Source: Armatimonadota bacterium (GTDB taxonomy: Bacteria > Armatimonadota > UBA5829 > DTJY01). From it: 64,000 nucleotides of DNA. The DNA lies in assembly GCA_025358205.1 (NCBI GenBank), contig JANYKG010000070.1, positions 13,748 through 77,747 on the forward strand. Reading direction: 5' to 3'. Shown here piece after piece: positions 8,266-63,341 of this stretch; positions within the stretch are counted from its first letter, which is position 1; the number at the start of each line of letters is the position of its first letter. The translations under genes were made by a program, and so were the position numbers. Under the pieces are notes generated by a model that was not told the DNA's origin, searched no databases, and was given only the letters and a program-made list of their open reading frames with translations.

Positions 8266-8385
8266 TCCCGATCCTTTCAAGACAACACTTGCCACTCATC
8301 ATCCGACTCCGCCTCGCCGCAGCGGACTTGCGCGGATGTATGGTGGCAATGTGCGGTGATTTCGTTATCTGTTATATCAAACCTA

Positions 8386-8468: not shown

Positions 8469-8474
8469 TACTGA

Positions 8475-8987
<513 letters not shown>

Positions 8988-38323: not shown

Positions 38324-38470
38324 CCTGGATTATTCATGAAGTGAATAATCCAGGGCCTTCAGAGCATTATTCACCCTCTCGTGAATAATGCGGACTAGCG
38401 CGGATTATGCTTGTCCCGCATAATCCGCGGCCTTCGGAGCATTGTTCACGAAGTTCGTGAGCAATGCGTA
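38324..38470. repeat. REP-like composite element, copy e (four tandem palindromic units)
   Basis: CTGGATTATTCATGAAGTGAATAATCCAGG; GAGCATTATTCAccctctcGTGAATAATGCGG; CGGATTATGCttgtccCGCATAATCCG; GAGCATTGTTCACgaagttCGTGAGCAATGC. Confidence 0.85.
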
Positions 38471-40230: not shown

Positions 40231-41415
40231 TCAGGATATCTGAATCAGCATGGCAACCGCAAAACACTCCATAGCAAGTCCTTCGCCAACCGGCCCCAGG
40301 CCCTCGGCGGTCTTGCCCTTCACGTTCACCTGCTGCGGTGCAATACCCAACACGCCTGCGATACTCTCACAGATTGCAGGCACATGGGCGGCTATCTTCG
40401 GGCGTTCTGTCACCAATGTTATGTCCAAATTAACCACCCGCCAACCTGATTCCTCCAGTATACCGGCTACTCGCTTCAGCAGTTCGGCGCTTCTTATGTC
40501 CTTGTATGCCGGATCGGTATCAGGAAAATGCCTGCCTATGTCACCTGCGCCGGCGGCCCCCAACAGTGCGTCTATGACGGCGTGAATAAGGACATCAGCG
40601 TCCGAATGGCCGAGTAGCCCAAGCTCGAATGGTATCTCTACACCGCCCAGAAAGAGCTTGCGATCAGGAACCAGGCGGTGCGAATCATAACCGTGACCGA
40701 CTCTCATTTCGGATTTCGGATTTCGGATTTCGGATTTCAAAAGGATTGCCTCCGCAAATACCAGGTCTGTCGGGGTTGTCACTTTGATGTTCTCGTATGA
40801 ACCCCACACCAGCCGCACAGATATGCCGAGCCTCTCTACCATAGACGCATCATCCGTGCCAAACCATCCGTCTGCATACGCTGATTCGAAAGCTTCTTCG
40901 ATAATTGTGCGCTTGAAGGTTTGAGGGGTCTGAACGGCATACAGCTCATCACGGTCCAGAGTTCCGGTGATGAGTAATCCATCCACGGATGATTTGATGG
41001 TGTCTACCACGGGAACCGCTGCTATGGCCGCGCCGTGGATTCTGGCAGCTTCGATGGTGGCTGTGATGATTCCCGATGTAACGAGGGGACGCGCGCCGTC
41101 ATGCACTGCCACGATGTCGCACTCGGGTGATACTCGCGCAAGGCCGTTTCGCACTGAATCCTGCCTGGTCTCACCGCCGACGACTATTGCCGCTACCTTG
41201 GTGATGCCGAGGTCACGTACAAGCGCTTCTGCGTCCGGGACACGCTCACGCTGTACCACCAGCGCTATTTCGTCAACAGCGCTGCAATTCTGAAAAGTTC
41301 TCAACGTGTGCGCCAGCATCGGCTCGCCGGCGAGAGGCACAAAAGACTTGCCGCCCTGCGCGCTAAGTCTTTTTCCTAGGCCTGAAGCCGGAATAATTGC
41401 GGACGTTCCTGTCAA
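40231..41415 (-). CDS. ispDF: bifunctional 2-C-methyl-D-erythritol 4-phosphate cytidylyltransferase / 2-C-methyl-D-erythritol 2,4-cyclodiphosphate synthase
   Basis: IspD N-terminal half ([11 protein letters not shown]). IspF C-terminal half (GHGYDSHR...HSDADV). Linker EIRNPKSE is encoded by an in-frame heptamer repeat. Confidence 0.85.
40711..40740. repeat. tandem heptamer repeat (TTTCGGA)x4 inside ispDF linker
   Basis: catTTCGGATTTCGGATTTCGGATTTCGGATTTCaa. 28 nt; read in-frame. Confidence 0.8.
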
Positions 41416-42640: not shown

Positions 42641-42715
42641 CCTGGATTATTCATGAATCGAATAATTCAGGGCCTTTAGAACATCATTCACGCTTATCGT
42701 GAATAATGCGAACTA
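42641..42715. repeat. REP-like element, copy f
   Basis: CCTGGATTATTCATGAATCGAATAATTCAGGgcctttagaaCATCATTCACgcttatcGTGAATAATGCG. Confidence 0.8.
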
Positions 42716-45381: not shown

Positions 45382-45544
45382 TTGCGAGAAGTCTCTCCGG
45401 CGATTCCTCAAAGATCGCATCCGGTTTCCCAGACAAGTCTGAGCATCATTATAGCACAGTTCAATACAGCGCGGAAGAGCAATTCGAATGCCCATTTCGG
45501 AATGCGGATCTCGGATTGCGGATTGGCTGGAACCAGAGCCAAGC

Positions 45545-49777: not shown

Positions 49778-50356
49778 ATGGACAAAATTTACAAAGCAAT
49801 CTCAGATGCAACGAGGCGAACCATCCTGAAGCTCCTCCGCGAGCGTGACATGACCGCTGGGGAGATAGCGGAACACTTCGACCTCACAAAGCCGACGCTC
49901 TCCAGGCACTTCTCGGTACTCCGTGAGGCAGGACTCATCACAGACGAAAAGAAGGGGCGAAACATCATTTATCGCCTGAACGCGGAACTTTTGGAGAACT
50001 CGCTTGTCTCACTAATGGAGGACTACGCGTTCGTGTGGACGCCGCCGATGGATGTGGAACAGGCCGCGAGAGCATTTGTGGAGTCGCTCGTCCGTGGTGA
50101 TTTCCAGAACGTTGTGCAGGACTTTGATGAGACCGTGGCAGCCATATTGACTCCCGAAAAGCTTCGCGACACGTGGAATCGTGTTATCGAATACCATGGT
50201 CCGTTCATCAAGCAGACAGATGTATGCACGGAGAAGTACTGGAAGTACACCACCGTAGTCATTGCCTGTGAGTTCGGCAACTCGAAGGTAAACATCAAGG
50301 TGACCTTCAGCAGATCGGGGCAAATCTCGGGACTGCTGATCCTGGAAGCGCAATAG
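49778..50356 (+). CDS. ArsR/SmtB (SdpR-like) HTH regulator fused to C-terminal DUF3887-like domain
   Basis: N-terminal ISDATRRTILKLL...GEIAEHFDLTKPTLSRHFSVLREAGLI HTH. C-terminal about 90 aa resemble the N-domains of the two downstream hydrolases (RGDFQNVVQDFDETV...NIKVTFSRSGQISGL). Confidence 0.7.
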   Translation: MDKIYKAISDATRRTILKLLRERDMTAGEIAEHFDLTKPTLSRHFSVLREAGLITDEKKGRNIIYRLNAELLENSLVSLMEDYAFVWTPPMDVEQAARAFVESLVRGDFQNVVQDFDETVAAILTPEKLRDTWNRVIEYHGPFIKQTDVCTEKYWKYTTVVIACEFGNSKVNIKVTFSRSGQISGLLILEAQ

Positions 50357-50357
50357 T

Positions 50358-50430
50358 CCGCATTATTCATGCTGAGCATGAATGATGCTCTGAAGGCCCT
50401 GGATTATTCATTTCATGAATAATCCAGGCT
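50358..50430. repeat. REP-like element, copy i (opposite orientation)
   Basis: CCGCATTATTCATGctgagCATGAATGATGC...CTGGATTATTCATTTCATGAATAATCCAGG. Confidence 0.85.
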
Positions 50431-50454
50431 AGGAAAGGATAAGAGGAGAACATT

Positions 50455-51762
50455 ATGAATCGTTTTGTAACGACGATGGGAAGAATAGTCCTCATGGTCG
50501 TGACGTGCGTGGCAGTGCTGGCAGCTGCATCCTGTGCCAAACCCAGCGCCACCCAAGTGGCTGAGGGGATGGTTGACTCCATGGTTAGGGGTGACTTTGC
50601 CTCCGCGACCAAGGACTTCGACGCCGCAATGCAGGCCGCCTTGCCCGCGGAGAAGTTGGGCCAAAGCTGGGCGCAGGTGACGGCGCAGATAGGGGCATTC
50701 AAGTCACGCACCGGAAGCCGTGAGGCACAGGAGGCCGGCTCTCAGACTGTACATGTGACCTGCCAGTTCGAGAAGGGGAGTTGGGACATCAAGGTCACAT
50801 TCGACAAAGACGGCAAAATCGGCGGGCTGTATGGGTCCCCTGCACAATCCGCGGAAGTGCCGTATAGGATGCCGTCATACGTTCACAAAGAGCGATTCGA
50901 GGAGTACCCTGTTTTCGTCAACAAGGGCGGCGAGTGGGAACTCCCGGGCACGCTGACTATTCCGAAGGGCAAAGGGCCATTCCCTGCCGTGGTTTTGGTT
51001 CACGGCTCCGGCGCACAGGACCGGGATGAGACCATACTTGCCAACAAGCCGTTCAAGGACATCGCATGGGGCCTGGCGTCGAGAGGGGTTGCGGTCCTGC
51101 GGTACGATAAGCGCAGTAAGGTATACACTGACCCGGCGAAGTGGGGCAAGAGCTTTACCGTCAAGGAGGAAGTGACGGACGACGCGCTGGCGGCCGTCAA
51201 ACTGCTTCGCGGCTCCACCGGGATCGATCCGAAGAGGGTCTTCGTGTTGGGCCACAGCAATGGCGCCTTGCTCTCTCCGAGGATCGGGAAGGCCGACCCC
51301 AAGATCACCGGGCTGATCATGATGGCCGGGTGCATCACCCAGCCAGTAGAGAAGTGTGTCTTGCGGCAGGCCACGTACATAGCCTCACTAAATGGGCCGA
51401 TAACCGATGACACCAAGAAGGAGATCAACAAGCAAGTGCAATCGGCCATGAAGAGCGTGCCGGATTCATACAATCAGGATCTCGATGACTATATTCGGGC
51501 GGCGCCGGAGATGGCAAAGTCGCTGAAACAGCCCATGCTCGTCATTCAGGGCGCACGGGACTACCAGGCCATCGAGGCAGACTTCAAAATCTGGAAGGCT
51601 GCGCTCTCTTCGCGAACCAATGTCACGTTCAAGCTCTACCCGGACCTGAACCACCTCTTCATGACGGGAACCGGCATGGCCACGCCCTCCGAGTACGAGA
51701 AACCCGGTACCGTGGCGCAGTCAGTGGTCAGCGACATCAGCGATTGGATCAACGGGCATTAG
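50455..51762 (+). CDS. lipoprotein: N-terminal DUF3887-like domain + alpha/beta hydrolase (GHSNG nucleophile elbow)
   Basis: Signal peptide with AASC lipobox. DUF3887-like segment GDFASATKDFDAAM...WDIKVTFDKDGKIGGL. LVHGSG, VLGHSNGA and a DLNH-type His. Confidence 0.7.
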   Translation: MNRFVTTMGRIVLMVVTCVAVLAAASCAKPSATQVAEGMVDSMVRGDFASATKDFDAAMQAALPAEKLGQSWAQVTAQIGAFKSRTGSREAQEAGSQTVHVTCQFEKGSWDIKVTFDKDGKIGGLYGSPAQSAEVPYRMPSYVHKERFEEYPVFVNKGGEWELPGTLTIPKGKGPFPAVVLVHGSGAQDRDETILANKPFKDIAWGLASRGVAVLRYDKRSKVYTDPAKWGKSFTVKEEVTDDALAAVKLLRGSTGIDPKRVFVLGHSNGALLSPRIGKADPKITGLIMMAGCITQPVEKCVLRQATYIASLNGPITDDTKKEINKQVQSAMKSVPDSYNQDLDDYIRAAPEMAKSLKQPMLVIQGARDYQAIEADFKIWKAALSSRTNVTFKLYPDLNHLFMTGTGMATPSEYEKPGTVAQSVVSDISDWINGH

Positions 51763-51771
51763 GAGCATCAT

Positions 51772-52131
51772 ATGTGGACGACATTTGTTCAGCAGGCCGG
51801 AATGCTATTCCAACAACCGCTTCTCATTGGGTTAAGTGTGCTCTGCATTGTGGGAGGGCTGCCGCTGGCAATGAATCTCATCCCACCCAATCCCATTTCC
51901 GGTGTCAAGGTTCGGAAAACCCAATCCGATAAACGCATTTGGTATCTCGTCAATTCGTATTGCGGCAAGGGATTAATTCTGACCGGGGTTATCACCATTG
52001 TCTGTGCCGTGGCGCTCCGCCTGACAGCTATGCCGCCAGCCACATGCGGAGCGATAGGCGTTCTGGTGCTCGTCGGCGGCCTTGTGCTGTGGGTCGTCGC
52101 GACCTTGATCTACCTGATCCGTGTAAAGTGA
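51772..52131 (+). CDS. SdpI/YhfL-family small membrane protein
   Basis: IPPNPISGVKVRKT motif (PNP..G.R.T) between TM helices. Confidence 0.6.
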   Translation: MWTTFVQQAGMLFQQPLLIGLSVLCIVGGLPLAMNLIPPNPISGVKVRKTQSDKRIWYLVNSYCGKGLILTGVITIVCAVALRLTAMPPATCGAIGVLVLVGGLVLWVVATLIYLIRVK

Positions 52132-52137
52132 ATTTGG

Positions 52138-52210
52138 CCCGCATTATTCACAAACAACGTGAATAATGCTCTGAAGGCCCTGGATTATTCGCTTCATGAA
52201 TAATCCAGGC
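52138..52210. repeat. REP-like element, copy j
   Basis: CCGCATTATTCACaaacaaCGTGAATAATGC...CTGGATTATTCGCTTCATGAATAATCCAGG. Confidence 0.85.
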
Positions 52211-52255
52211 TAGCTTCGGTCTGTTGCATTGAATGAGCGTGCCTGAAAGGAGAGA

Positions 52256-53680
52256 ATGATGAAGAAACACACTATCGCATGGAGACTAGTGGCTATCGGC
52301 TTGCTGGCGATCGGCCTTATGTCGCAAGGTGCCTATGCCGACCGCGCCGCTGACGGCACTGCGTTTCTGCAGTCTGTGAAGAGTGGGCAGTACGCCGAAG
52401 CTGTCTCGCATTTCGACGCAGTAATGAAACAGGCGATGTCCGCCGCGCAGTTGAAGGATACCTGGGAGATGGTCTGCCAGAAAGTGGGAGCATACGGCGG
52501 AATCACCAAACCTCAGGTCTGGAAGAAGGACGTAGGCGGTAATGTATACGATATCGTCCAGTTCCCCAGCAAGTTCGGCAGCACGTCGCTGGACATCTGG
52601 GTTGTCTACGATCTGACCGGGGAGATCGGCGGATTGTGGTTTTTGAATCCTTCGCCGGGAGGTCCACCGGCCGCCATTACGCAGGGGCTTCCGGCCAAGT
52701 CCGCCGGACCTCAATACACTGCTCCGTCATACGTTCGCAAAGAACGATTTGAGGAGTACCCCATTTTCGTCAACGAAGGTGAGGAGTGGCAACTTCCCGG
52801 AACGCTTACCATGCCTAAGGGCGAGGGGCCTTTCCCGATCCTGATCCTCGTTCATGGTTCCGGTCCGAATGACCGGGATGAGGCCATAGGTCCCAATAAA
52901 CCGTTCATGGATATCGCGTGGGGTCTGGCATCCAACGGAATAGCGGTCGTGCGATATGACAAGCGCACCAAAGTCCATTCAGCGAAGCTGGCCAAGATGG
53001 TAGACAAAATAACGGTGAAGGAAGAGACCGTTGACGATGCGCTGGCCGCAGTTTCGCTCACCCACTCTCTGCAGAGGATAGACCTGAAGCGAATCTACGT
53101 CCTCGGCCACAGCCTGGGCGGAATGCTTATACCGCGAATCGGCGCAGGAAATTCAGAGATCGCTGGTTTGATCGTGCTTGCCGGGCCGACCAGACCGTTT
53201 GAGGATATTCTCCTGGAGCAGGTCACCTACATCGCCTCACTTAAAGATACATTAACAGCGGACGACAAGGCTGAGTTGGCGAAATTGAAACAGCAGGTGG
53301 CGAACGTGAAAAGCCCAAAGCTCTCGCTCAAGACCCCAATGTCAACGCTGCCCCTCGGTACGTCTCCCGCATCGTACTGGCTTGATCTGCGGGGCTACAA
53401 ACCCGCAGAGTCGGCAAAGACGCTGAAACAGCCCATGCTCATCATGCAGGGCGGGCGCGACTATCAGGTCACCGAGGCGGACTTCAAACTCTGGAAGGAT
53501 GCGCTTTCTTCGCGGACCGACGTTACATTCAAGCTCTACCCTGACCTGAATCACCTGTTCATGACCGGAGTCGGTAAGGCCACGCCCTCCGAGTACGAGA
53601 AACCGGGCAGTGTGGAACCGGCCGTGGTAAGCGACATTGCCGATTGGATAAACGGCCAGCAGACAGTAGGTGCGAAATGA
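52256..53680 (+). CDS. secreted DUF3887-like domain + alpha/beta hydrolase, paralog
   Basis: Signal peptide. SGQYAEAVSHFDAVM...DIWVVYDLTGEIGGL domain. LVHGSG and LGHSLGG. Confidence 0.7.
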   Translation: MMKKHTIAWRLVAIGLLAIGLMSQGAYADRAADGTAFLQSVKSGQYAEAVSHFDAVMKQAMSAAQLKDTWEMVCQKVGAYGGITKPQVWKKDVGGNVYDIVQFPSKFGSTSLDIWVVYDLTGEIGGLWFLNPSPGGPPAAITQGLPAKSAGPQYTAPSYVRKERFEEYPIFVNEGEEWQLPGTLTMPKGEGPFPILILVHGSGPNDRDEAIGPNKPFMDIAWGLASNGIAVVRYDKRTKVHSAKLAKMVDKITVKEETVDDALAAVSLTHSLQRIDLKRIYVLGHSLGGMLIPRIGAGNSEIAGLIVLAGPTRPFEDILLEQVTYIASLKDTLTADDKAELAKLKQQVANVKSPKLSLKTPMSTLPLGTSPASYWLDLRGYKPAESAKTLKQPMLIMQGGRDYQVTEADFKLWKDALSSRTDVTFKLYPDLNHLFMTGVGKATPSEYEKPGSVEPAVVSDIADWINGQQTVGAK

Positions 53681-54162
53681 GCGATAAGACAAACGTTTCA
53701 TTTCGGGAGGTTCAGCGCGGTATAGGTTACTGGCTAGCGCTCGTTCTGGTCGTGGCGTTCATCGGCCCGTATGTCTGGACCCGGCACGCGCCACCACAAG
53801 GCATGCTGCTGGCGACGGCATTGCTGATCTTCTTTTTCACGTACCTTTGCAGGATGGTTACCGAGGTTCGCGATGACGGCGTATACGTGCAGTGGTGGCC
53901 CTTCGTGCCGATGTTTCGCAGGTTTCCGTTCGCTGACATCGAATCAGCAGTAGCACGAACGTACAATCCCATAGGCGAGTACGGCGGCTGGGGCATCCGC
54001 GTCCGAATCGGACCGGGCGCGAAACTGGGCGGCGCGTACAACATGAAGGGCAACCGAGGCGTGCAACTCGTCTTCAAGAACGGCGTACGTCTCCTCATCG
54101 GCTCGCAGGACGCCGAAAACCTTGAACACGCCATCCGAAGCGACATGAGCCGGTATGCTTAA
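53677..54162 (+). CDS. membrane protein with 2 TM + bacterial PH-like domain
   Basis: Start MSDKTNV overlaps the upstream stop. 2 TM, then a GGWGIRVR...GVQLVFKNG beta-rich domain. Confidence 0.45.
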   Translation: MSDKTNVSFREVQRGIGYWLALVLVVAFIGPYVWTRHAPPQGMLLATALLIFFFTYLCRMVTEVRDDGVYVQWWPFVPMFRRFPFADIESAVARTYNPIGEYGGWGIRVRIGPGAKLGGAYNMKGNRGVQLVFKNGVRLLIGSQDAENLEHAIRSDMSRYA

Positions 54163-54246
54163 ATCATTGAGAGTTTACAATTCTGTTTGGGTAGACTTGA
54201 CATGCATCCGTCTACGACCGATAATGAATACGGAGTTGCATGTGAT

Positions 54247-54414
54247 ATGAGGAGATACAAGCTGTCCGAACTGCAGACAGAACTGCGTGCGAAAGGTATC
54301 CCCGCGCTAGCGCAGAGGCTCAAGAAGGAGTCGGGATACGACGCTCGTGCGCGCAAACTGCGCCGCAACCCCGGTGAGATAAAGGCGGCCGATGATGCCC
54401 GACGGCCCGAATGA
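54247..54414 (+). CDS. small basic protein (55 aa) upstream partner of NTase
   Basis: MRRYKLSELQTELRAKGIPALAQRLKK... Overlaps the NTase start. Confidence 0.4.
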   Translation: MRRYKLSELQTELRAKGIPALAQRLKKESGYDARARKLRRNPGEIKAADDARRPE

Positions 54415-55018
54415 TAGAGTTGACCATCTGTCAGCGCTCAAATCACGCCTTCACCACATCTCACCATCACCCAGCCGTCAAGGATTATTAACTCAAGTTG
54501 CCTCGCTCATCACCGAGGCATTCATGGCGCTTGGTGTCAGCCCGCCTGTAGTGGTCGGTGGTCTCGCCGTGGAGACATACACTACCGCCGAGTATACGAC
54601 TCGGGATGTTGACTTCATCCACACTGACGACTCAGCGGTCGCAAGAGTGATGCATGCCCTCGGTTTCACAAAGCGTCCCGGACATCGTTACTATGTGCAT
54701 CCGCAGGTTGATGTCTACGTCGAGTTCCCAACCGGTCCCCTGGATGGTGACAGTACCCGCATCTCCGAGATACAGCTTGACGACGGGAGCCTCATCTTCG
54801 TGATCGGTATCGAGGACATTATCATTGACCGGTTGTCCGCTTGGCAGAACTGGGACAAACTGCGAGAGGATTCGGAAGACGCGATCCAGGCGATCACGCT
54901 GTTGGTAGCGCAAGCCGGTAGCATTGACCACGATTACCTGAAGGCGGTCGCTGCTGAACGTGGGTTGTCCGATGCGTTGTCGGAAATCCAGCAGCGAGTT
55001 AACGCCCTGCGAGGATGA
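54392..55018 (+). CDS. AbiEii-like nucleotidyltransferase, paralog of 20338..20931
   Basis: VVVGGLAVETYTTAEYTTRDVDFI NT-fold motif. Confidence 0.6.
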   Translation: MMPDGPNDRVDHLSALKSRLHHISPSPSRQGLLTQVASLITEAFMALGVSPPVVVGGLAVETYTTAEYTTRDVDFIHTDDSAVARVMHALGFTKRPGHRYYVHPQVDVYVEFPTGPLDGDSTRISEIQLDDGSLIFVIGIEDIIIDRLSAWQNWDKLREDSEDAIQAITLLVAQAGSIDHDYLKAVAAERGLSDALSEIQQRVNALRG

Positions 55019-55142
55019 TATAGTTCGGCTGTTCCAGCCGCCCCTCTCCGCTGACGGCTGAGAGCTGATGGCTAGAGGCTATCCCCGGTATAATTACCAG
55101 TTTTTCCATGAATTCTCATCTGATGAGAGTGCAGGCTATTGA

Positions 55143-55171
55143 CATTCCATACAACCAGGCGTAATCTGTGT
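55143..55171 (+). promoter_or_regulatory. sigma70-like promoter TTGACA-N17-TAATCT upstream of PEP-CTERM gene
   Basis: AT-rich 250-nt spacer. Hairpin GGCTTCgcagAAGCC lies before the GAAGGAG RBS. Confidence 0.35.
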
Positions 55172-55268
55172 TTGATGCCCATTGAGGTATTACAGGCTAG
55201 GCAAGGTATTACCCAGGGTTTTTACATTTTAATTACATGGCTTCGCAGAAGCCGAAAGAAGGAGAAGG

Positions 55269-55892
55269 ATGAAGAATGCAGCGTTGATGATCTTCGTACT
55301 GGTTCTTAGCTGCATGATCTCAGCTAAGGCATCCACATTCACGGTCAACAGCAGAGCACTGGACGGTTCAAACACGCCGCACTTCGTGACATATACTGCT
55401 TCCTGCCTGGGGATGTACGAGTTTGACGTGTCGGGTACCTACCAGTATACCCTCAGCACAAGCACCTATTGGGCAGATGCAGGGTGGGCTACGCTAGACA
55501 GCTGGGCAACAATCACACCCAAGGTTGATGGCACACCCCGCCAAGATACACCGATCGATCCCGCTTTGCCTACTCCGGCTGGTATACTGATGTTGTGGTT
55601 TAGCGATGGTAGCGAAAACTTCCACGAGTGGGGTGAATATTCGTCATCGCATACCTACTCTACGCATAGAACACTGACCGCAGGCCAGCAACTCACTTTC
55701 TGGATATCAGACTGGTATCCCTACAGTGCAACTGACTACCAACGCTCATATGGGCCGCAGTGCTATGCGGATAACTCTGGCTTCCTCACCGTTAGTGTAG
55801 CGGTTGAAGCGGTACCCGAGCCGTCATCCTTCGTTGCCCTGGGTGCGCTGGTGGTGCCACTACTAGCGCGCAGCCGGTGCAGAAAGCACTAA
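55269..55892 (+). CDS. PEP-CTERM sorting-domain secreted protein
   Basis: Signal peptide. C-terminal VPEPSSFVALGALVVPLLARSRCRKH (PEP motif, TM, basic tail). GC is lower than its surroundings. Confidence 0.75.
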   Translation: MKNAALMIFVLVLSCMISAKASTFTVNSRALDGSNTPHFVTYTASCLGMYEFDVSGTYQYTLSTSTYWADAGWATLDSWATITPKVDGTPRQDTPIDPALPTPAGILMLWFSDGSENFHEWGEYSSSHTYSTHRTLTAGQQLTFWISDWYPYSATDYQRSYGPQCYADNSGFLTVSVAVEAVPEPSSFVALGALVVPLLARSRCRKH

Positions 55893-55929
55893 CACCCTGT
55901 TCGCTACGCGCAAGAGGAGTAATTTCTCC

Positions 55930-56229
55930 GTGTGCAGGGCTATTCTAAAGAATGGAGACGCGATAAGGATGAGCAATTGGCCAGACAGCATAGTGTCATA
56001 CATTGACCTCATAGGAATACGCGCACAGGTAGACAGCGGGACTACCAGAGCCTCTAATACAATGCGGAGGATGCATCAGTGTGTGGCTGACGCGACAAGA
56101 AAAATGCAACGGCACAATTACGTTTACCTGCTAAACGATTGCGTGTTGCTCATGGCACCTGTCGATACAGGTGAGGACTACAGATTGGTGATGAGCGAGC
56201 TGAGTGATCTCAAGGGGTGTGTCAAGTAA
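55930..56229 (+). pseudogene. 5' fragment of a gene (class III nucleotidyl cyclase-like?) truncated by IS256 insertion
   Basis: Last codons (GCVK*) are read from the IS left inverted repeat. No in-frame continuation beyond the IS right end. Confidence 0.45.
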
Positions 56230-57547
56230 ACTGTGCTTCTGCCCTCACCGGTCGTGTCAGGCAACGACGTGTTTGACCCGGTCCGGGAAGAACACCGCCA
56301 GTTGCGCCAGTATCTGCCCCCAGTTGGGCACCCGCATCGTCCACTTGCGGGTCACGTCCTGCGTCACAAGATAGAGCATCTTCAGCAGCGCATCATCGGT
56401 CGGAAAGATGCTCTTTCCTTTTGTCACCTTCCGAAGCTGCCGGTGGTAGCTCTCGATCAGGTTGGTCGTGTAGATGATCTTCCTAATCTCCGGCGGGTAG
56501 GCAAAGAAGGTCGCTATCTCCGCCCAGTTCCTCCGCCAGGACTCTACGATATACGGGTACTTCTTGCCCCATTCCGCCGCAAATAGATCAAGCTCAGCTA
56601 GTGCCACTTCCTCAGACGGGGCGGTGTATACCTTCTTCAGGTCAACCGTCACCTTCTTTACGTCCTTGTAGGAGACGTACCGTATCGAGTTCCTGACCTG
56701 GTGCACGATGCACTTCTGTATCTCGGTCTTCGGGAACGCCGCCGAGATCGCTTCGCTGAACCCAGAGAGATTGTCCACACTTACGATCAGTATGTCCGCC
56801 ATCCCACGGTTCTTCATCTCTGAAAGCACCGACAGCCAGAACTTGGCCGACTCGCTCTCGCCGATGTATATGCCCAGCACATCCTTCCTGCCCTCAAGGT
56901 CGATCCCGATCACCATGTAGGCCGCTTTGCTCTTGATCTGGCCGTTGTCTCTCACCTTGTAGTGAATGGCATCCAGGAATACGAACGCGTACACCTCTTC
57001 AAGCGGCCGGCTCTGCCACTCGTGAATCAGCGGCATGATCTTATCCGTGATGTTGCTGATGAGCCCAGGCGAGACGTCTATGCCGTAGAGCTCGTGGAGG
57101 TAGTCCTGTATCTCCCTGGTGCTCACGCCTTTCGCGTAGAGGGCTATGATCTGCTCCTCGATCTTCGAGATATTCCTCTCGCGCTTCTTTACGATCAGGG
57201 GATCAAAGTCGCATTCCCGATCACGGGGGACTTCTATATCCACCTCTCCGTGGCTCGTGCGCAGTGTCTTCGTGCCGTGACCGTTCCTGCGGTTCTCCGT
57301 CTTCTTGTTCTCGGAATCGTTCTTCTCGTAGCCGAGATGGTGATCCATCTCAGCCTCAAGCATCGCCTGGATCGTCTCGCCGAAGAGATCCTTCAGCGTC
57401 TCGTGGATATCCTCGACAGTCTTGATGTTCCGTTCCCTAATCAGTTCCTTGATCTGTTCTCTGCTCAGTAGTGCCATGTTGCGCTTTCTGTCCTTTCCTT
57501 CGTAAGTATATCCTACGACCGAAGGTTAGGCAAAAGCACACTTCATT
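56217..57547 (-). mobile_element. IS256-family insertion sequence (transposase CDS 56257..57477)
   Basis: 406 aa Transposase_mut (IS256) protein. Imperfect terminal IRs GTGTGTCAAGTAAACTGTGCTTCTGCC (left) and GTGTGTAGAATGAAGTGTGCTTTTGCC (right, revcomp). Confidence 0.85.
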
Positions 57548-57638
57548 CTACACACTCTATGGCACTCTATCGGCCCGAGAAAATCCAAGAATCAGCTAGC
57601 GAAGTGAGATATTCAGAATGTCCTCAGAAGCCACAAGG

Positions 57639-58619
57639 CTACTCACTGATAGCTCTTCTCTCTGATTTCTTCTTGTTATGGTAGGCATCATGGCAGAACG
57701 TAGAACAATACTTCGCGGAACGCTTCTTCAGTTCTCCTTGTGACGATGCTTCGGCCTTTTCCCAACCTACCTCAAAATCGTTTCCGCAGTTAGGGCACGT
57801 CTTGAACTCACGCTGTCCGGTCACAGCTTGGGCGAACTGAAGCCACATAGCACCCAAGAGGTTGGTTGGGATAATGTGTAGTTCCAGACCACCGTCTGCT
57901 CGGCTGACAATACCGGCTCTTGTATTGCCCTTACGCAACTCCATCACATTCTCTGCCTTGTTGAAGGATACCGAGGTATCGTCAAGATGTTTGTTCACTA
58001 TCTGCACTAGACACGCTCTCGCAAGAGGGAGAATCTGCCTTGTGTCATAGGCAGGACGAAGATGCGAGTTTCTTAGAAGGTTCAAGTCCACAAAACAGTC
58101 TTCGTTCGCATATCCATAGTCAACGTGACAACTCAGGCGGCGAGGCTCGTCAGACGGGCCAAGACGTACTATGTCCTTGAGTTTGCTCATGTCCTTCTGC
58201 TCAACAGCACTATGAAAAGCATAGACCGCCGCCATGTGCTCTGATTCATTCCTCCAGTCGTCAAGGAGTTCTACCACTACCCTTTGTCCTGTCTGGTCAC
58301 GCATGAGCAATTCACCTTGGCGGCTCGGAAACCACGGCGGCAGTTTGTTTCCCTCAGTCAAGGTCATTGCCGCAAACCTACCAAGATTGCCATACACACG
58401 GGCAAAGGCGAAAATGGTGTTCACGTCCGGCGGAACCTGCCGACTGCCAACCTTCGCGAACTTTTTGAATAGAGTAGGTTCATCTCTCATCGGTTCATAG
58501 GTTTTCTTTGGCGAAGAATGAAACACGATTCCGCACGTTTCATTGCCCTTCACCAAACCTTTGACCAAGGCGCAATCCTCAAGCACATACTGCACGAACT
58601 CAACGGACAAGGCTACCAC
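57639..58619 (-). CDS. hypothetical protein with C-terminal zinc-ribbon (CPNCG...CSTFCHDAYH)
   Basis: 326 aa, lower GC, lies in the island. Confidence 0.45.
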   Translation of the reverse strand: MVALSVEFVQYVLEDCALVKGLVKGNETCGIVFHSSPKKTYEPMRDEPTLFKKFAKVGSRQVPPDVNTIFAFARVYGNLGRFAAMTLTEGNKLPPWFPSRQGELLMRDQTGQRVVVELLDDWRNESEHMAAVYAFHSAVEQKDMSKLKDIVRLGPSDEPRRLSCHVDYGYANEDCFVDLNLLRNSHLRPAYDTRQILPLARACLVQIVNKHLDDTSVSFNKAENVMELRKGNTRAGIVSRADGGLELHIIPTNLLGAMWLQFAQAVTGQREFKTCPNCGNDFEVGWEKAEASSQGELKKRSAKYCSTFCHDAYHNKKKSERRAISE

Positions 58620-58735
58620 CTGCTTTCACTCACTGAAAAATCTGGAAGATACACGGAATCACAACGCTAACCGTGTAGACATAGCGTAACACGAATGATA
58701 CACTTAGGGCAAGTACAAACAAACGGAGGTGCCTT

Positions 58736-58933
58736 ATGGTACAGAACAATCTCACTGTTAGTGTGCCCGAAGCTGGGCGTTTGCTTGGCATAGGTAGGAA
58801 CCTGAGCTATCGTCTTGCACAGGAGGGCAAACTGCCGATCTTGCGATGTGGTAAGAGGGTTCGCGTGTCCTTGTCCGCACTTGAACGTATGATTGACAAT
58901 TGTGGACAGCTAAGAACAGAGGCGAAGAAATGA
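58736..58933 (+). CDS. AlpA/Xis-like helix-turn-helix DNA-binding protein
   Basis: 65 aa. VPEAGRLLGIGRNLSYRLAQEGKLPILRCGKRVRV HTH_17-like. Confidence 0.6.
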   Translation: MVQNNLTVSVPEAGRLLGIGRNLSYRLAQEGKLPILRCGKRVRVSLSALERMIDNCGQLRTEAKK

Positions 58934-59466
58934 GAGCGGTAATGCAAAATAGCGGAGTCGCAGGCTTTGACGGGCGCGGCGGCTCCGCTATGGGACAGGC
59001 GAAGAGCTTCGCGAAAAACTCATCACCAGTTCATTATACCACACCAAGGCCGGGCGTCAAGCCTGAGCGGACGGGTTGGCGCGATGAAGCTCTATCCGCA
59101 AGGCATCGGCTGTATGGCTGTGATGCTCCAATGGTGGATGTTGACTTCCTGTGCTGTGAGTATGACTCCGGCATTCCCTGTGCGATCATCGAATACAAGG
59201 CTTCGCGGCCTTTCTGTATTGACCGAATGCACGCAAGTTATCGGGTACTCCGCCGCTTGTCTGATTCGGTCCGCGTACCGTTCGCGGTAGTCTTCTACAA
59301 TCCTACCGTATGGCGGTTCACGGTCTACCCTATGAATGACTATGCAGAAGCATGGTTCGAAGAAGGCGAAGAACTCTCTGAGCGTGAGTATGTCACACGG
59401 CTGTATCAGATACGCGGGCGAGAACTGCCGCATTATGTTGCGGATGCACTGGAGGTCACGCCATGA
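58930..59466 (+). CDS. hypothetical protein with PD-(D/E)XK-like motif
   Basis: VDVDF...IIEYK spacing compatible with a restriction-endonuclease-like fold. Start taken at MRAVMQ. Confidence 0.35.
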   Translation: MRAVMQNSGVAGFDGRGGSAMGQAKSFAKNSSPVHYTTPRPGVKPERTGWRDEALSARHRLYGCDAPMVDVDFLCCEYDSGIPCAIIEYKASRPFCIDRMHASYRVLRRLSDSVRVPFAVVFYNPTVWRFTVYPMNDYAEAWFEEGEELSEREYVTRLYQIRGRELPHYVADALEVTP

Positions 59467-61967
59467 AGCTTGAGGATCTCCTCCAACTTCTTGACTCACC
59501 AAAGCAGAGCGGTAAGGAGTGGGTAGCACGCTGTCCGGCTCATGATGATAGCAAGGCTTCGCTCAGTGTCACGGAGTCCGATGATGGAAGCAGAATACTC
59601 CTGAAGTGCTTCGCCGGTTGCGAAACTACCGCCATTGTGCAGGCTCTTGGTATCAAGATGCACGATCTATTCACGAAGTCGAAACCTGCCATACTGGAAC
59701 AATCGGAGAACAACCGAGTAGTTGCGGAATATGGATACACCGATGCAGGCGGCTCTTTGCTGTATCAGGTTGTGCGGTATGAACCGAAGGACTTCAGGCA
59801 GAGACAACCGGACGGGAAGGGCGGTTGGTCTTGGAACATGAAGGGCGTTAAGCGAGTCCTATACCGGCTTGTGCAAGTCAATTCGGCGATTGCGGCGGGT
59901 ATGCCTGTCTTCATTGTGGAAGGAGAGAAGGACGTTCATTCCCTGGAGTCCATCGGTCTGACTGCTACCACAAACGCAGGCGGCGCGGCGAAATGGGAAG
60001 CACGCTTCTCGGACTCACTCCAGGGCGCGGATGTTATCATACTGCCGGACAATGACGGCCCGGGCAGGAAACACGCGGAATTAGTTGCTAATGCCCTGTG
60101 CGGCATAGCGAAGAGTGTGCGAGTGTTAGAACTGCCCGGGCTATCGGAGAAGGGAGATGTATCAGACTGGTTAGCGGCAGGCGGAACAGAGGAAGACCTT
60201 CTATCGCTGGTAGAAGCGGCGTCCGAGTGGATACCGACGGCGGCAGAGCAGTGCGAGCATGCGGAGATACCGGGTAGTGCATCGGACGGATACCCGCTCA
60301 CCGATCTCGGCAATGCTGAGCGGCTGATAGCGTGTCATGGTAAAGACCTGCGTTACCATGTGGAAGCGGGCGTATGGCTTGTTTGGAACGGCAAGCAGTG
60401 GGTATCGGACTGCACAGGGCAGGTAGACTTACTCGCACGCGGCGTAGTACGCGGCATGTATGATCTGCTGAAGGAGTGCCGGACAACGGCGGAGAGTGAA
60501 GCTCTCTTCCGGCATATCAGAAGCTCTGAATCCAAGAGCAAGCTTGACGCTATGGTGACGCTTGCAACGAAGTGCGAAGGCATACCCGTGCAGAGTTGCG
60601 ATCTGGACTCAGACAACTGGCTTCTGAACTGCGAGAACGGCACGGTAGACCTTCGGACGGAAAAGCTCAGACCTCACAGGCCGGAAGACCTGCTCACCAA
60701 GCTCTCACCAGTGGTATACGATACGGCGGCGAAGTGTGAGCGGTGGGAACGGTTCCTGCGCGAAGTCTTTCCGGGCGGTGAAGAGAACCATGAATCAGCG
60801 GATGAAGAGCTTGCCGGCTTTGTACGGCGTATGTGTGGATACCTGCTCACGGGCGATACGGGAGAGCAGTGCTTCTTCCTGCTCACGGGCAAAGGCTCCA
60901 ATGGGAAAAGCGTGCTTGTGAATACGCTTATTCACATACTTGGTGACTATGCCAAAGGCACGCCGGTTACAACGTTCCTGGAGAAGCGCGGAGAGAATAG
61001 CTCAGACCTGGCTTCACTTGTTGGAGCGCGGATTGTCACGGCGTCCGAAAGTGAAGGTACGACTTCCTTCAATGAGTCCCTTCTGAAACAGCTTACCGGG
61101 CAGGACGGCATAACGGCGCGGCACTTGTACCAGAACTACTTCACGTTCAAGCCTACGTTTCGGGTGATATTCGCAACGAACGAGGTTCCGCGTATCAAGT
61201 CTCAGAACTACGCCATTAAGCGGAGAGTCAAGCTCTTACCGTTTCGGACGAAGTTCTACTATCCGCACGAACAGAAGTTCCCTGTGCGTGACGAAAGGCT
61301 TACCGACACGCTGAAGGCAGAGGCTTCCGGCATACTGGCTTGGTGTATTCGCGGGTGCGGCGAATGGCAGAAGGAAGGGCTTGGTATGCCCGATGTGATA
61401 CAGGCAGAGGTGGATTCGCTCTTTGAGAATATGGATGTTCTGCTAGACTTCATCGAAGAGGAGTGTGAGATTCATCCACGGTACAGAGTTGAAACCGGCG
61501 AACTGTGGAAGGCGTATCAGGCATGGTGTGAAGCATCCAAGACCAAGCCTGTATTCAAGCGTGCTTCTGACTTCTCACGGAACTTGACCGGCAGGGACAA
61601 TATCGAGAATACTCGCGGCGGTAAGGGTATCCGGTATATCACCGGAATCGGCTTACTTGGCGGTGAATCACGCTCAAAGGTGACGCCGGGTGACGCCAAA
61701 ACGGCTTTTTCGGGAACTCTCCCATATGAGCATAATCCAAAACACTTTCCAGAAAACGCGAATTCGCGTCACCCGGCGTCACCCTACGAGGAAAACGGCG
61801 AAGAAGATAGCGGCGTAGTGGATGACTCAAAGCCGAAATATGACCCGGTAAAGGGTGAATGTTCACACTGTGGAAAGACCTGCAACTTCAAGGCAGGCGG
61901 TGAGTATGCCTGTCCTACATGCATCACGCGGTATACTCCAAGCACGGAAGGAAATGGTAGAATATGA
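59463..61967 (+). CDS. P4-type primase-helicase (Zn-ribbon + TOPRIM primase + D5_N + SF3 helicase)
   Basis: CPAHDD...LKCFAGC zinc ribbon. TOPRIM VFIVEGEKD...ILPDNDGPG. Walker A LTGKGSNGKS. 834 aa. Confidence 0.8.
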   Translation: MKLEDLLQLLDSPKQSGKEWVARCPAHDDSKASLSVTESDDGSRILLKCFAGCETTAIVQALGIKMHDLFTKSKPAILEQSENNRVVAEYGYTDAGGSLLYQVVRYEPKDFRQRQPDGKGGWSWNMKGVKRVLYRLVQVNSAIAAGMPVFIVEGEKDVHSLESIGLTATTNAGGAAKWEARFSDSLQGADVIILPDNDGPGRKHAELVANALCGIAKSVRVLELPGLSEKGDVSDWLAAGGTEEDLLSLVEAASEWIPTAAEQCEHAEIPGSASDGYPLTDLGNAERLIACHGKDLRYHVEAGVWLVWNGKQWVSDCTGQVDLLARGVVRGMYDLLKECRTTAESEALFRHIRSSESKSKLDAMVTLATKCEGIPVQSCDLDSDNWLLNCENGTVDLRTEKLRPHRPEDLLTKLSPVVYDTAAKCERWERFLREVFPGGEENHESADEELAGFVRRMCGYLLTGDTGEQCFFLLTGKGSNGKSVLVNTLIHILGDYAKGTPVTTFLEKRGENSSDLASLVGARIVTASESEGTTSFNESLLKQLTGQDGITARHLYQNYFTFKPTFRVIFATNEVPRIKSQNYAIKRRVKLLPFRTKFYYPHEQKFPVRDERLTDTLKAEASGILAWCIRGCGEWQKEGLGMPDVIQAEVDSLFENMDVLLDFIEEECEIHPRYRVETGELWKAYQAWCEASKTKPVFKRASDFSRNLTGRDNIENTRGGKGIRYITGIGLLGGESRSKVTPGDAKTAFSGTLPYEHNPKHFPENANSRHPASPYEENGEEDSGVVDDSKPKYDPVKGECSHCGKTCNFKAGGEYACPTCITRYTPSTEGNGRI

Positions 61968-62449
61968 CAGAGAAGCACGAAAAACGATATGCCCGGGCAA
62001 TCATCGGACTACTAGAGAAGCCTACCGTGTCAGAGGCGGCGCGGTATGCAGAGGTATCGGAAACAACGCTTTACCGATGGATGAATGATACGGGCTTCCA
62101 GATGCTCTACAGAGCGGCAAGGCGTGACATTGTGAAGCAAGCTGTGGCACGGCTCCAGCGGGCTTGTTCCCGTGCGGTGGATACCTTGCAGGACGTTATG
62201 GAAGACAGCGAGTCTTCTGCATCGGCCCGGGTGACGGCGGCGAAGACGGTGATGGAAATGGCATTCAAAGCGGTAGAGCTTGAAGACCTGGAAGAGCGGG
62301 TAACTGCGCTGGAAGGATTGGGTGATCTTGCGGCCCGGGTGGACGTGCAGGACGTTCCCGAGTTGTCACACTACACAACAGAAGAGCTTTCACAGATAAG
62401 GGCTATACATGAGACAGCAGACGCTCGAAGGGATTCGGCGAGAGGATGA
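61964..62449 (+). CDS. HTH-domain protein of mobile element (terminase-small/regulator-like)
   Basis: EAARYAEVSETTLYRWM HTH. Overlaps the primase stop. Confidence 0.45.
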   Translation: MTEKHEKRYARAIIGLLEKPTVSEAARYAEVSETTLYRWMNDTGFQMLYRAARRDIVKQAVARLQRACSRAVDTLQDVMEDSESSASARVTAAKTVMEMAFKAVELEDLEERVTALEGLGDLAARVDVQDVPELSHYTTEELSQIRAIHETADARRDSARG

Positions 62450-62675
62450 AGAGGCTATGACAATGAAGCTAAGGCGAAGGGTAGAAGAACTGGAGAGACA
62501 GGCGTCGGTAAAGCCTTGCGACCGTGGTATCCACCTGCACGAGGGATGGAAGAATCCGCGTACTGACTGCCGGATATGCAAAGCCATGAGTGAAGAAGAA
62601 TACGCGGCCTATCTGGAGCATGGTGACGGGCGTATGGTTATTGAGATTGTGGAACAAGTTGCACGTGCTGATTAG
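62409..62675 (+). CDS. small hypothetical protein
   Basis: 88 aa. Possible Cys pair (CDRG...CRIC). Confidence 0.3.
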   Translation: MRQQTLEGIRREDEEAMTMKLRRRVEELERQASVKPCDRGIHLHEGWKNPRTDCRICKAMSEEEYAAYLEHGDGRMVIEIVEQVARAD

Positions 62676-62702
62676 CCTGCCGAATCTGCATGATTGAAGG
62701 GC

Positions 62703-62731
62703 TTGACTACCTCACAGGGTTCGGCTATAAT
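62703..62731 (+). promoter_or_regulatory. consensus sigma70 promoter TTGACT-N17-TATAAT upstream of tRNA cluster
   Basis: Perfect -10, near-perfect -35, 17-nt spacer, about 135 nt before tRNA-Leu. Confidence 0.5.
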
Positions 62732-62868
62732 GTGCAAGACAGGACGACACAAGATAGTACGAACCAAGTGCGGTAAGGTGTGAAAACAGAACCTTACTTG
62801 GTATGAGCGAACAAGGGAAAAAGCCGAAAATCGTGCTCAGAAGTGTGGAAAACCTGTTGCCGAAACGC

Positions 62869-62955
62869 GGGGATGTGGCGGAATGGCAGACGCGCTTGGT
62901 TGAGGGCCAAGTGAGCTTAACGCTCGTAAGAGTTCAAATCTCTTCATCCCCACCA
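62869..62955 (+). tRNA. tRNA-Leu (anticodon GAG), type II with long variable arm, CCA encoded
   Basis: Acceptor GGGGATG/CATCCCC. Anticodon stem CTTGG/CCAAG, loop TTGAGGG. T-loop TTCAAAT. Confidence 0.85.
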
Positions 62956-63000
62956 GCTTCCACAATTCGGATTTCGGATTGCGGAATTCGGAGTTTGTTT
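62951..63000. repeat. heptamer-periodic repeat AATTCGGA/TTTCGGA/TTGCGGA/ATTCGGA between tRNA-Leu and tRNA-Val
   Basis: Same NNNCGGA 7-nt periodicity as at 40711, 45492 and 63081. Confidence 0.7.
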
Positions 63001-63002
63001 GT

Positions 63003-63077
63003 CGGGCGATTGGCTCAGCGGGAGAGCACTGCCTTCACACGGCAGGGGTCACTGGTTCGAATCCAGTATCGCCCACC
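63003..63077 (+). tRNA. tRNA-Val (anticodon CAC)
   Basis: Acceptor GGGCGAT/ATCGCCC. Anticodon loop TTCACAC. T-loop TTCGAAT. Confidence 0.85.
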
Positions 63078-63129
63078 ATTTCCAATTCGGAATGCGGAGT
63101 TCGGATTGCGGAATGCAGAGTGGTTTCTT

Positions 63130-63204
63130 GCGGGAGTAGTTCAGCGGTAGAGCACCTGCTTCCCAAGCAGGTTGTCGCGGGTTCGAATCCCGTCTCCCGC
63201 TCCA
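63130..63204 (+). tRNA. tRNA-Gly (anticodon CCC)
   Basis: Acceptor GCGGGAG/CTCCCGC. Anticodon stem CCTGC/GCAGG, loop TTCCCAA. Confidence 0.85.
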
Positions 63205-63228
63205 TTTTTGGTTCGGGCAGAAGTTGGT

Positions 63229-63256
63229 CCGCATTATTCACTTCATGAATAATCGA
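63229..63256. repeat. REP-like element, copy k (single palindromic unit) between tRNA-Gly and tRNA-Cys
   Basis: CCGCATTATTCACTTCATGAATAATCG. Confidence 0.7.
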
Positions 63257-63266
63257 GATTAGTCGG

Positions 63267-63341
63267 GGCGTGATACCCAAGTGGTAAGGGGGAGGTCTGC
63301 AAAACCTTTATTCAGCGGTTCGAATCCGCTTCACGCCTCCA
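63267..63341 (+). tRNA. tRNA-Cys (anticodon GCA)
   Basis: Acceptor GGCGTGA/TCACGCC. Anticodon stem GAGGT/ACCTT, loop CTGCAAA. Confidence 0.8.

Follow-up and report, generated by a model that had tools for sequence, protein, structure and literature searches.

The phage satellite P4 itself integrates at a tRNA-Leu gene, a likeness to the apparent target of the element described here. Under the definition of de Sousa et al. (2023, PMC10085698), phage-inducible chromosomal islands (PICI) combine an integrase with a regulator (AlpA, MerR or Stl), a primase-replicase, a small terminase (TerS) and a gene for capsid morphogenesis, and contain no other structural genes. The satellite families surveyed in that study were concentrated in Proteobacteria and Firmicutes, P4-like elements being almost confined to Enterobacterales (PMC10085698). 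Here, we analysed a stretch of 64,000 nucleotides from a bacterium of the phylum Armatimonadota (the window), in which a segment at positions 57558-62868, directly 5′ of a tRNA-Leu(GAG) gene, carries a primase-helicase gene. It is probable that this segment is the integrase-less remnant of an integrative, self-replicating element of about 7 kb that had targeted tRNA-Leu(GAG) and lost its left end at a copy of an IS256-family insertion sequence (IS). The evidence consists of base composition, gene identities, synteny, the tRNA repeats of relatives, the absence of a target-site duplication at the IS, and a conserved iteron architecture.

The primase-helicase segment and its relatives

The segment belongs to a block (54187-62868) with a GC content of 0.533, compared with 0.571 ± 0.008 in same-size windows of positions 1-54186 (minimum 0.553); the drop was modest, approximately 3.8 points, yet beyond the background range. 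Tetranucleotide distances to the background were 18.5-24.4 in 4-kb windows from 54 kb onward, and 9.5-14.6 elsewhere in the window. Since the region of 49.8-54.2 kb was compositionally normal, the left edge of the block was placed at about 54.17-54.20 kb, just right of the end of a DUF6141 gene (54162). A 1343-bp copy of the IS (56215-57557) divides the block into a left part (54187-56214) and a right part of 5.3 kb (57558-62868). The open reading frames (ORFs) of the window were compared with Pfam, PHROGs, NCBIfam and PADLOC, and RNAs were sought with Rfam. These analyses bore out much of what a preliminary description had drawn from the letters of the block, namely a drop in base composition judged by eye (the composition is indeed not uniform), a primase-helicase with zinc ribbon, TOPRIM, D5_N and superfamily 3 (SF3) Walker A motif, an AlpA-like or Xis-like helix-turn-helix (HTH) protein, a copy of IS256, an adjoining tRNA cluster (tRNA-Leu(GAG), Val, Gly and Cys at 62869-63341) and the lack of an integrase, no recombinase having been found among the ORFs scanned. 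Its view of the block as a horizontally acquired, integrative and replicative element was likewise supported. The features of the right part are as follows.

57639-58619, - strand: 326-aa protein of a DUF6076-related family with a C-terminal treble-clef-type zinc finger, in the slot that lies between integrase and HTH_17 gene in relatives
58620-58735: control region from which the 326-aa gene and the rightward operon diverge, with a weak promoter-like site at 58676-58704 (+)
58736-58933, + strand: HTH_17/excisionase-family DNA-binding protein (AlpA/Xis-like), first gene of the rightward operon
58900-59466, + strand: 188-aa protein with a match to phrog_16357 (3e-22); public gene calls give it 178 aa
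59463-61967, + strand: primase-helicase with zinc ribbon, Toprim, D5_N, SF3 P-loop (GKGSNGKS), Pox_D5 and a C-terminal extension ending in a second zinc ribbon
61679-61783: candidate replication origin within the 3′-terminal part of the primase gene, made up of GGTGACGCC-G-GGTGACGCC and, beyond an A/T-richer spacer, two copies in inverted orientation
61964-62449, + strand: 161-aa HTH and coiled-coil protein, TerS-like by matches to small-terminase PHROGs
62409-62675, + strand: 88-aa ORF that closes the element, with a 43% identical small ORF in the corresponding place of locus L009
62703-62731, + strand: near-consensus outward promoter TTGACT-17-TATAAT, 137 nt upstream of tRNA-Leu
62758-62803: inverted motif CGAACCAAG...CTTACTTGG between promoter and tRNA, conserved in L013 and L054, with a related motif at both ends of L004
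62869-62955, + strand: tRNA-Leu(GAG), followed by tRNA-Val, Gly and Cys up to 63341

The contexts of related loci (designated by L numbers) were obtained by exact-protein look-ups, and GTDB genomes and IMG/VR were scanned with an alignment of the primase. This revealed a family of elements of 7-11 kb in metagenome-assembled genomes (MAGs) of Armatimonadota and others. Intact members have the order tRNA copy, tyrosine integrase (approximately 320 aa), divergent zinc-finger protein, HTH_17 protein (AlpA/Xis-like), 188-aa-type protein, primase-helicase with iterons in its 3′ end, TerS-like protein, small ORF(s), outward promoter with arm-type repeats, and a second full tRNA; of this order, the window retains the whole part that starts with the zinc-finger protein and ends with the right-hand tRNA-Leu(GAG). 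The relatives that carry the comparison are listed below with the identity of their primase to that of the window, their gene order and their target.

L009, primase 60%: integrase (319 aa), 76 aa, 364 aa (- strand), HTH_17, 182 aa, primase, TerS-like, small ORFs; contig of 7.2 kb that opens with a tRNA-Pro and closes with its first 30 nt
L010, primase 59%: order as in L009, starting with a C-terminal fragment of the integrase
L004, L013 and L054, primase 44-55%: same order, integrase present
L013: tRNA-Leu(GAG), perfect direct repeat of 88 nt, element of 10.8 kb
L054: tRNA-Asn, perfect direct repeat of 77 nt, element of 9.9 kb
L004: tRNA-Ser, perfect direct repeat of 102 nt, element of 8.5 kb
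L068: tRNA-Gly, perfect direct repeat of 86 nt, element of 6.9 kb
L012: tRNA-Lys, two copies
L094: tRNA-Leu(GAG), integrase (322 aa), 164 aa, then homologues of the 326-aa protein (53%), the HTH_17 protein (56%) and the 188-aa protein (60%), the 326-aa homologue and HTH_17 being divergently transcribed like their window counterparts

Among L004, L009, L013, L054 and L094, the integrases share 43-68% identity. In L009, the 182-aa protein is 50% identical to the 188-aa protein of the window and the TerS-like protein 74% identical to its counterpart, and the 88-aa ORF has its 43% homologue there. In the relatives the integrase lies beside the left tRNA copy, and the right end of the element is always 5′ of a tRNA; more distant relatives (Planctomycetota, Acidobacteriota and others) show a classical 44-56-nt repeat of the tRNA 3′ half. 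Since the right end of the relatives abuts the 5′ end of the right tRNA copy, and the upstream region in the window is of the same attR type, we read the window tRNA-Leu as the attR copy, full-length and on the right-hand side. That the element lies 5′ of tRNA-Leu, which had been regarded as an anomaly for an integrative element, is therefore nothing unusual, because the close relatives are flanked by two full-length tRNAs, of which the window retains the right one. Where an element duplicates the whole tRNA, its right-hand copy looks like an ordinary tRNA gene, and in annotation an integrase-less island 5′ of a tRNA need not be anomalous.

The upstream region shared with the relatives includes the promoter: in L004, L009, L010, L013 and L054, a TTGACA-17/18-TAnnnT promoter was located 115-190 nt upstream of the right-hand tRNA copy, and the native promoters of the left-hand copies in relatives end 10-16 nt from the tRNA. 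No promoter-like site was found directly upstream of the window tRNA-Leu. With the site at 62703-62731, the tRNA-Leu-Val-Gly-Cys cluster now has a single recognisable promoter, which may well drive it; such co-option, if true, would place the right end of the remnant under selection. In L013 and L054, a repeated motif (CGAACCAAG/CTTGGTT) follows the promoter, and the inverted motif of the window may represent putative arm-type sites for integrase or Xis. An Rfam scan by E-value of the leader between promoter and tRNA returned the four tRNAs only and no other known RNA.

The primase-helicase matched the CHC2 zinc ribbon, D5_N (7e-35), DUF5906/SF3 P-loop (3e-13) and TIGR01613 'primase, P4 family' (1.6e-76), with G476, G478, N480, G481 and K482 invariant in the alignment. 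Its homologues number in the thousands, and the best named ones are from Armatimonadota MAGs. A second element of different organisation was present in L002, from sample SRR23617163, with a primase 54% identical and upstream genes of 238, 405 and 320 aa that had no family match. Five elements, that of the window among them, have paired direct and inverted iterons of 9-10 nt around an A/T-richer spacer, located at the 3′ end of the primase gene or shortly beyond it; the iterons of L009 (5607-5712) are identical to those of the window, and L010 (4741-4844) has AATGACGAC, L013 (12241-12352) three copies of TGACGG, and L004 (12185-12290) CGTGTCGCT. P4 (ori/crr) and SaPIs (ori) have replicase-specific origins with such an iteron pattern, and the iteron origin of P4 is bound by its replicase. 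Because the architecture is conserved while the iteron sequence diverges, as in those two origins, the array is a candidate for a replicase-specific origin.

Upstream of the primase gene, the HTH_17 protein (Pfam HTH_17, 4.6e-9; TIGR01764, 34.2 bits with a cut-off of 28.8; phrog_66 and phrog_12527) has homologues 42-56% identical at the same position in L004, L009, L010, L054 and L094. The 188-aa protein has homologues 50-60% identical in L009, L010 and L094. The label PD-(D/E)XK-like, previously attached to it, agrees with a P-x2-D...E-x-K motif in which P77, D80, E98 and K100 are invariant in four homologues, but finds no backing in Pfam or PDB sequences, neither of which gave a match; a single-sequence structure model was unusable (pLDDT 45).

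The 326-aa protein had been taken for cargo, an assignment that was not sustained, as it is a backbone gene in a conserved slot: homologues lie between the integrase and a divergent HTH_17 gene in L094, L014, L069 and L096, and the window has the same arrangement minus the integrase. This slot is fixed for the family in elements from several phyla. The family counts at least 1595 representative clusters without curated annotation; motifs are conserved at its N-terminus, and its C-terminus ends in a zinc finger (LLGAMWLQFA...CxxC...FE...CSxxC). Of 57 members, 14 match DUF6076, an additional HTH is present in 18, and treble-clef models match several. The window protein itself had no match in Pfam, PHROGs, NCBIfam or PDB sequences. 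Its AlphaFold (AF2) model was confident (pLDDT 86, pTM 0.86), and Foldseek searches of PDB (best E 0.27) and BFVD (best E 5e-3, an unnamed protein) gave nothing significant. A defence-system identity for this protein or the cargo was considered and rejected, PADLOC having returned nothing meaningful. From position and domain content, we infer that it acts as the DNA-binding regulator of the element, by analogy with cI or Stl; the intervening control region (58620-58735) has DNA similarity to the same region of L094. In L004, L009, L010 and L011, the genes in this slot have no similarity to that of the 326-aa protein, and hence the slot is variable among the closest primase relatives. In the tRNA-Gly-flanked element L068, from an Atrimonadaceae genome, the slot gene (7505-8509, - strand) ends in a zf-CGNR zinc finger (8.4e-5), which suggests that different zinc-finger regulators may fill the slot.

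Downstream of the primase gene, the 161-aa protein matched five TerS PHROGs at 7e-7 (phrog_2538) to 6e-3, and homologues 57-74% identical were found in L009, L010, L013 and L054. The homologues of L013 and L054 scored approximately 26 bits on Sf6_terminase (cut-off 27), and that of L068 exceeded the cut-offs of Terminase_5 and HTH_Tnp_1_2. A six-homologue profile searched against PDB hit 2ao9, a 'phage protein' (1e-4), Sf6 gp1 (0.05-0.07) and also TetR regulators. Among the ORFs of the module, Pfam, PHROGs and NCBIfam gave no match to capsid, head, scaffold, portal, large-terminase, tail or lysis genes, and among the ORFs scanned with these libraries none to relaxase, oriT or conjugation genes. 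L009 likewise had no capsid, portal, large-terminase or lysis match, and a TerS-like match was present as in the window. A strong tape-measure match (TMP_3, 4e-30; phrog_12798, 1.8e-47) was obtained for a 597-aa protein of L013 (14387-16180), odd cargo for a 10.8-kb element; the ORFs of L013 that were scanned gave no capsid, portal or large-terminase match. Another tape-measure protein is encoded in L094 (4091-6550).

Short repeats were also noticed around the tRNA cluster. The tRNA spacers contain short runs of heptamer-like repeats (ATTCGGA/TTGCGGA; 62960-62995 and 63085-63115), with similar copies in two other intergenic regions (40708-40734 and 45496-45522). A 22-nt sequence in the tRNA-Gly/tRNA-Cys spacer (63233-63254) recurs at 91-100% identity in several intergenic regions (38328-38349 (-), 50403-50424, 52184-52205 and 42645-42666 (-)) and may be a dispersed regulatory or REP-like motif.

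The IS256 copy and the missing left end

The junction at which the segment ends on the left consists of two features.

55930-56229, + strand: truncated ORF, its last five codons and stop inside the IS end, the original 3′ part gone
56215-57557, - strand: IS256-family insertion sequence of 1343 bp, its ends set by three 100% identical copies (L006/L007/L008)

The transposase (56257-57477, - strand) belongs to the IS256/Mutator family (Transposase_mut, 5.5e-121), and the terminal inverted repeats are imperfect. With its Mutator-type DDE transposase, a length of about 1.3 kb, imperfect inverted repeats and an 8-bp duplication at another copy, the IS resembles the IS256 family; it differs in that the window copy has no duplication, which points to a secondary rearrangement. 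The flanks of the window copy, ATCTCAAG and TATGGCAC, match at 1 of 8 positions, whereas an identical copy at another site (L006/L007) has a perfect 8-bp duplication, GCTGATCG. The IS occupies the place expected for the integrase (or integrase and a small ORF) and the left tRNA copy, for in six relatives the integrase is found beside or near the counterpart of the gene now abutting the IS.

No integrase remnant was detected in the island by tblastn with nine integrases from relatives. Far from the island, tblastn weakly matched (E 0.015-0.06) a 265-aa ORF (31132-31929, - strand), possibly a Xer-type recombinase, to the tyrosine integrases of the family over their C-terminal half. Direct repeats of the target tRNA at both ends, present in the relatives, are absent from the window, which has a single tRNA-Leu. 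The suggestion that att-like repeats of tRNA 3′ ends might lie further left met with a negative result, as no second copy or fragment of tRNA-Leu of at least 12 nt was found elsewhere in the window, the search returning only short intergenic repeats unrelated to att. On the side of the remnant, the 81 nt between the IS and the 326-aa gene, compared with L094 in search of the endpoint of the presumed deletion, had no similarity to it.

Since a target duplication is lacking, a truncated ORF lies on one side of the IS and the expected position of the integrase on the other, the best explanation of the junction is that an IS-associated deletion or rearrangement removed the integrase and the left tRNA copy. 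The proposal of an IS-mediated loss of the integrase, made in the preliminary description, thus gained support, from the missing duplication as opposed to the perfect one elsewhere and from the integrase position in six relatives. Recombination between two IS copies is an alternative route for the loss of the left end.

By comparison with the relatives, the following course can be proposed. Their integrase would recombine the tRNA copy of the element with the chromosomal tRNA, and both products would be complete tRNA genes, the left copy keeping the host promoter and the right copy using the promoter of the element. The HTH_17 and zinc-finger proteins would form a switch, and upon induction the primase-helicase would fire the iteron origin; the TerS-like protein would then direct the packaging machinery (terminase) of a helper phage to the element, as in PICI-type satellites. 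In the window, the IS256 copy would have come to lie in place of the attL tRNA copy and the integrase, so that the remnant would be stranded and no longer able to excise. Its regulator, replication module, candidate origin, TerS-like gene and attR end look intact, and it might still replicate in situ if induced.

The left segment and alternative explanations

The part of the block to the left of the IS contains, besides the truncated ORF, the following features.

54197-54225, + strand: promoter-like site TTGACA-17-GATAAT, 11 of 12 consensus matches, at the left edge of the low-GC block and upstream of the cassette of small ORF and nucleotidyltransferase (NTase) gene
54247-54414, + strand: small ORF, 55 aa in public assemblies (75 aa from TTG 54187) according to the gene calls in L092/L093
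54392-55018, + strand: NTase-fold protein of 208 aa, DUF6036-like by a sub-threshold Pfam match
55269-55892, + strand: secreted protein of 207 aa with a PEP-CTERM-type C-terminal sorting tail, by a sub-threshold Pfam match and the tail motif

The small ORF overlaps the start of the NTase gene and is a possible partner of it; neither Pfam, PHROGs, NCBIfam nor PADLOC gave it a family match, and the first three gave none to the truncated ORF. For the NTase, which had been described as AbiEii-like, only sub-threshold Pfam matches to DUF6036 (9.8e-5, 22.7 bits, cut-off 23.6) and DUF2204 and a match to phrog_13263 (4.9e-9) were obtained, with none to AbiEii and none in PADLOC, so that the AbiEii label had to be dropped. 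The PEP-CTERM assignment stands as far as the tail visible by eye goes, i.e. the motif VPEPSSFVALGALVVPLLARSRCRK (VPEP...hydrophobic...RSRCRK), accompanied by a hydrophobic N-terminus, although the Pfam match (0.0086, 16.6 bits) fell below the cut-off of 20.7; the protein looks like one of host type. Left of the block, the region of normal composition (49778-54162) encodes an ArsR-type HTH fused to DUF3887, two paralogous DUF3887 alpha/beta-hydrolases, an SdpI-like membrane protein and the DUF6141 protein.

None of the left-segment proteins (NTase cassette, PEP-CTERM protein, truncated ORF) had a homologue in approximately 170 related loci, and the architecture of the relatives has no space for such genes between tRNA and integrase. 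For these two reasons, we take the left segment to be, most likely, an accessory islet in its own right or else flexible chromosomal DNA that came to adjoin the remnant through the IS event, and the PEP-CTERM protein and the NTase module, earlier counted as part of the primase element, probably do not belong to it. The opposite view would be that the whole of 54187-62868 is one element with the left genes as cargo, the IS being a simple insertion and the integrase having been lost elsewhere. It would agree with low GC and deviant tetranucleotide frequencies that continue from approximately 54.2 kb to the tRNA, a signature which left segment and remnant share and which is compatible with common ancestry, and with the match of the NTase to a phage family, phrog_13263. 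We nevertheless consider a single element improbable, because in all relatives examined tRNA and integrase lie directly left of, or within approximately 2 kb of, the regulator-slot gene, the left-hand proteins lack homologues in the related loci, and the IS has no target-site duplication and hence is no simple insertion. Moreover, a PEP-CTERM protein would be atypical cargo, since such proteins need a host exosortase.

The proposal of a satellite-like remnant stranded by the IS has several points against it, which bear on the deletion as well as on the nature of the element. The deletion is deduced from the present arrangement of the sequence: neither an IS-free locus nor an empty site was found in relatives, a search of genome contigs with the primase alone gave no match for an empty site or IS-free ancestor, and one with the MatE flank for an empty site gave two distant matches only. 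Exact look-ups of the PEP-CTERM and HTH_17 proteins led to public contigs that all end in the IS or duplicate the window, and patterns from the IS-proximal flank (36 nt) and from the tRNA-Leu/tRNA-Val junction had no match in metagenome contigs. Alternatively, attL and the integrase may have been moved by translocation or inversion rather than deleted. In this respect, the Logan contig L001 (window 57530-62895, SRR23617163) stops 28 nt inside the IS and 27 nt into tRNA-Leu, and with 31-mers the latter stop implies a branch approximately 3 nt before the tRNA in that sample. Either a second context of tRNA-Leu in the sample, such as a missing attL copy, or merely a related organism would be compatible with that branch.

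As to the nature of the element, the module of 326-aa, HTH_17 and 188-aa proteins is shared with L094, possibly a prophage, in which a DnaB helicase and a tape-measure protein are encoded as well; L013, too, has a tape-measure-like gene, and the primase family occurs in IMG/VR contigs of 30-50 kb and in a phage-like region, L003. All of this could indicate that the primase module is the lysogeny and replication stump of a full temperate prophage that lost its morphogenesis genes, L094 with its further genes holding the closest homologues of the three proteins. Such an origin appears very improbable: the right end is intact and of attR type, with promoter, arm motif and tRNA directly after the TerS-like gene and the 88-aa ORF, a junction that a deletion of morphogenesis genes would have had to restore exactly, and the elements nearest in primase and TerS are whole at 7.2-10.8 kb, bounded by perfect direct repeats, and have no capsid, portal or large-terminase genes. 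A different objection concerns packaging. The TerS-like matches are weak and fall mostly in the HTH region, Pfam assigns the window protein to no terminase model, TetR regulators are among the best PDB matches of the six-homologue profile at similar E-values, no capsid-remodelling or capsid-interference gene was found, and no helper phage is known. The family could then consist of integrative plasmid-like replicons or mobilisable islands devoid of phage packaging, in which the TerS-like protein is merely an HTH transcription factor. We regard this as a minor but serious possibility; it has to contend with matches to five TerS PHROG families, two homologues near the Sf6_terminase threshold and one above the Terminase_5 cut-off, the position of the gene after the replication module, like terS in PICIs (PMC10085698), and the lack of relaxase, oriT and conjugation genes among the ORFs scanned. 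The satellite-like remnant therefore continues to be the reading that we prefer, its PICI-like nature being suggested by the genes.

Comparison with described satellites

The window locus is a decayed tRNA-targeting primase-helicase element, a fairly ordinary stranded element in a little-studied phylum, and current concepts are unchanged by it. It shows, however modestly, how an IS can strand a small integrative element, which is of use in annotation. To the study of satellites, the relatives contribute candidates for PICI-type elements in phyla with none described, and the 326-aa family, with its at least 1595 clusters, confident model, lack of a known fold match and fixed slot, is a reasonable target in the search for a new type of element regulator. 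We tentatively entertain the further idea that the intact relatives constitute an undescribed minimal phage-satellite family (7-11 kb) of Armatimonadota and neighbouring phyla, with a complete, promoter-equipped tRNA as attP, an iteron origin in the primase gene, TerS-like packaging and control by a DUF6076-like treble-clef family; the window would then hold a grounded satellite whose promoter was co-opted as the sole one of a four-tRNA operon.

With PICMI, the minimalist satellites of Vibrionaceae (PMC10803314), the element can be compared by description only, and as far as that description goes the two are alike in very small size, reduced gene content and lack of capsid-remodelling genes. 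The term P4-like, proposed in the preliminary description, applies to the alpha-type primase-helicase (TIGR01613) only; other points in common with P4 are the AlpA-family HTH protein and the iteron array. However, no homologues of Psu, Delta, Sid or epsilon were detected with Pfam, PHROGs and NCBIfam, the gene order differs, and the element has a TerS-like gene, which P4 lacks; the layout appears closer to that of a PICI-type satellite.

Compared with the PICI definition, the window has a regulator and a primase-replicase and no other structural or lysis genes, but neither an integrase nor a capsid-morphogenesis gene was found in it with Pfam, PHROGs and NCBIfam; relatives such as L009 would have four of the five components if the TerS assignment is accepted. 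The element further differs from PICIs in its weak TerS assignment, in a slot protein that is a DUF6076-like zinc-finger protein unrelated to Stl, MerR and cI, in its hosts, which are uncultured MAGs of Armatimonadota type with no helper phage or induction known, and in an attP that is a complete tRNA gene with its own promoter. On the other hand, features in common with PICIs, SaPIs and Gram-negative PICIs included, are the small size, the terminal position of the integrase (in relatives), the pairing of an AlpA-type HTH with a divergent regulator, an iteron array next to the primase/replicase, a TerS-like gene that follows the replication module, and the absence of capsid, portal, large-terminase and lysis genes. 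By analogy, the element would work like a PICI-type satellite, but it is not a verified member of the group.

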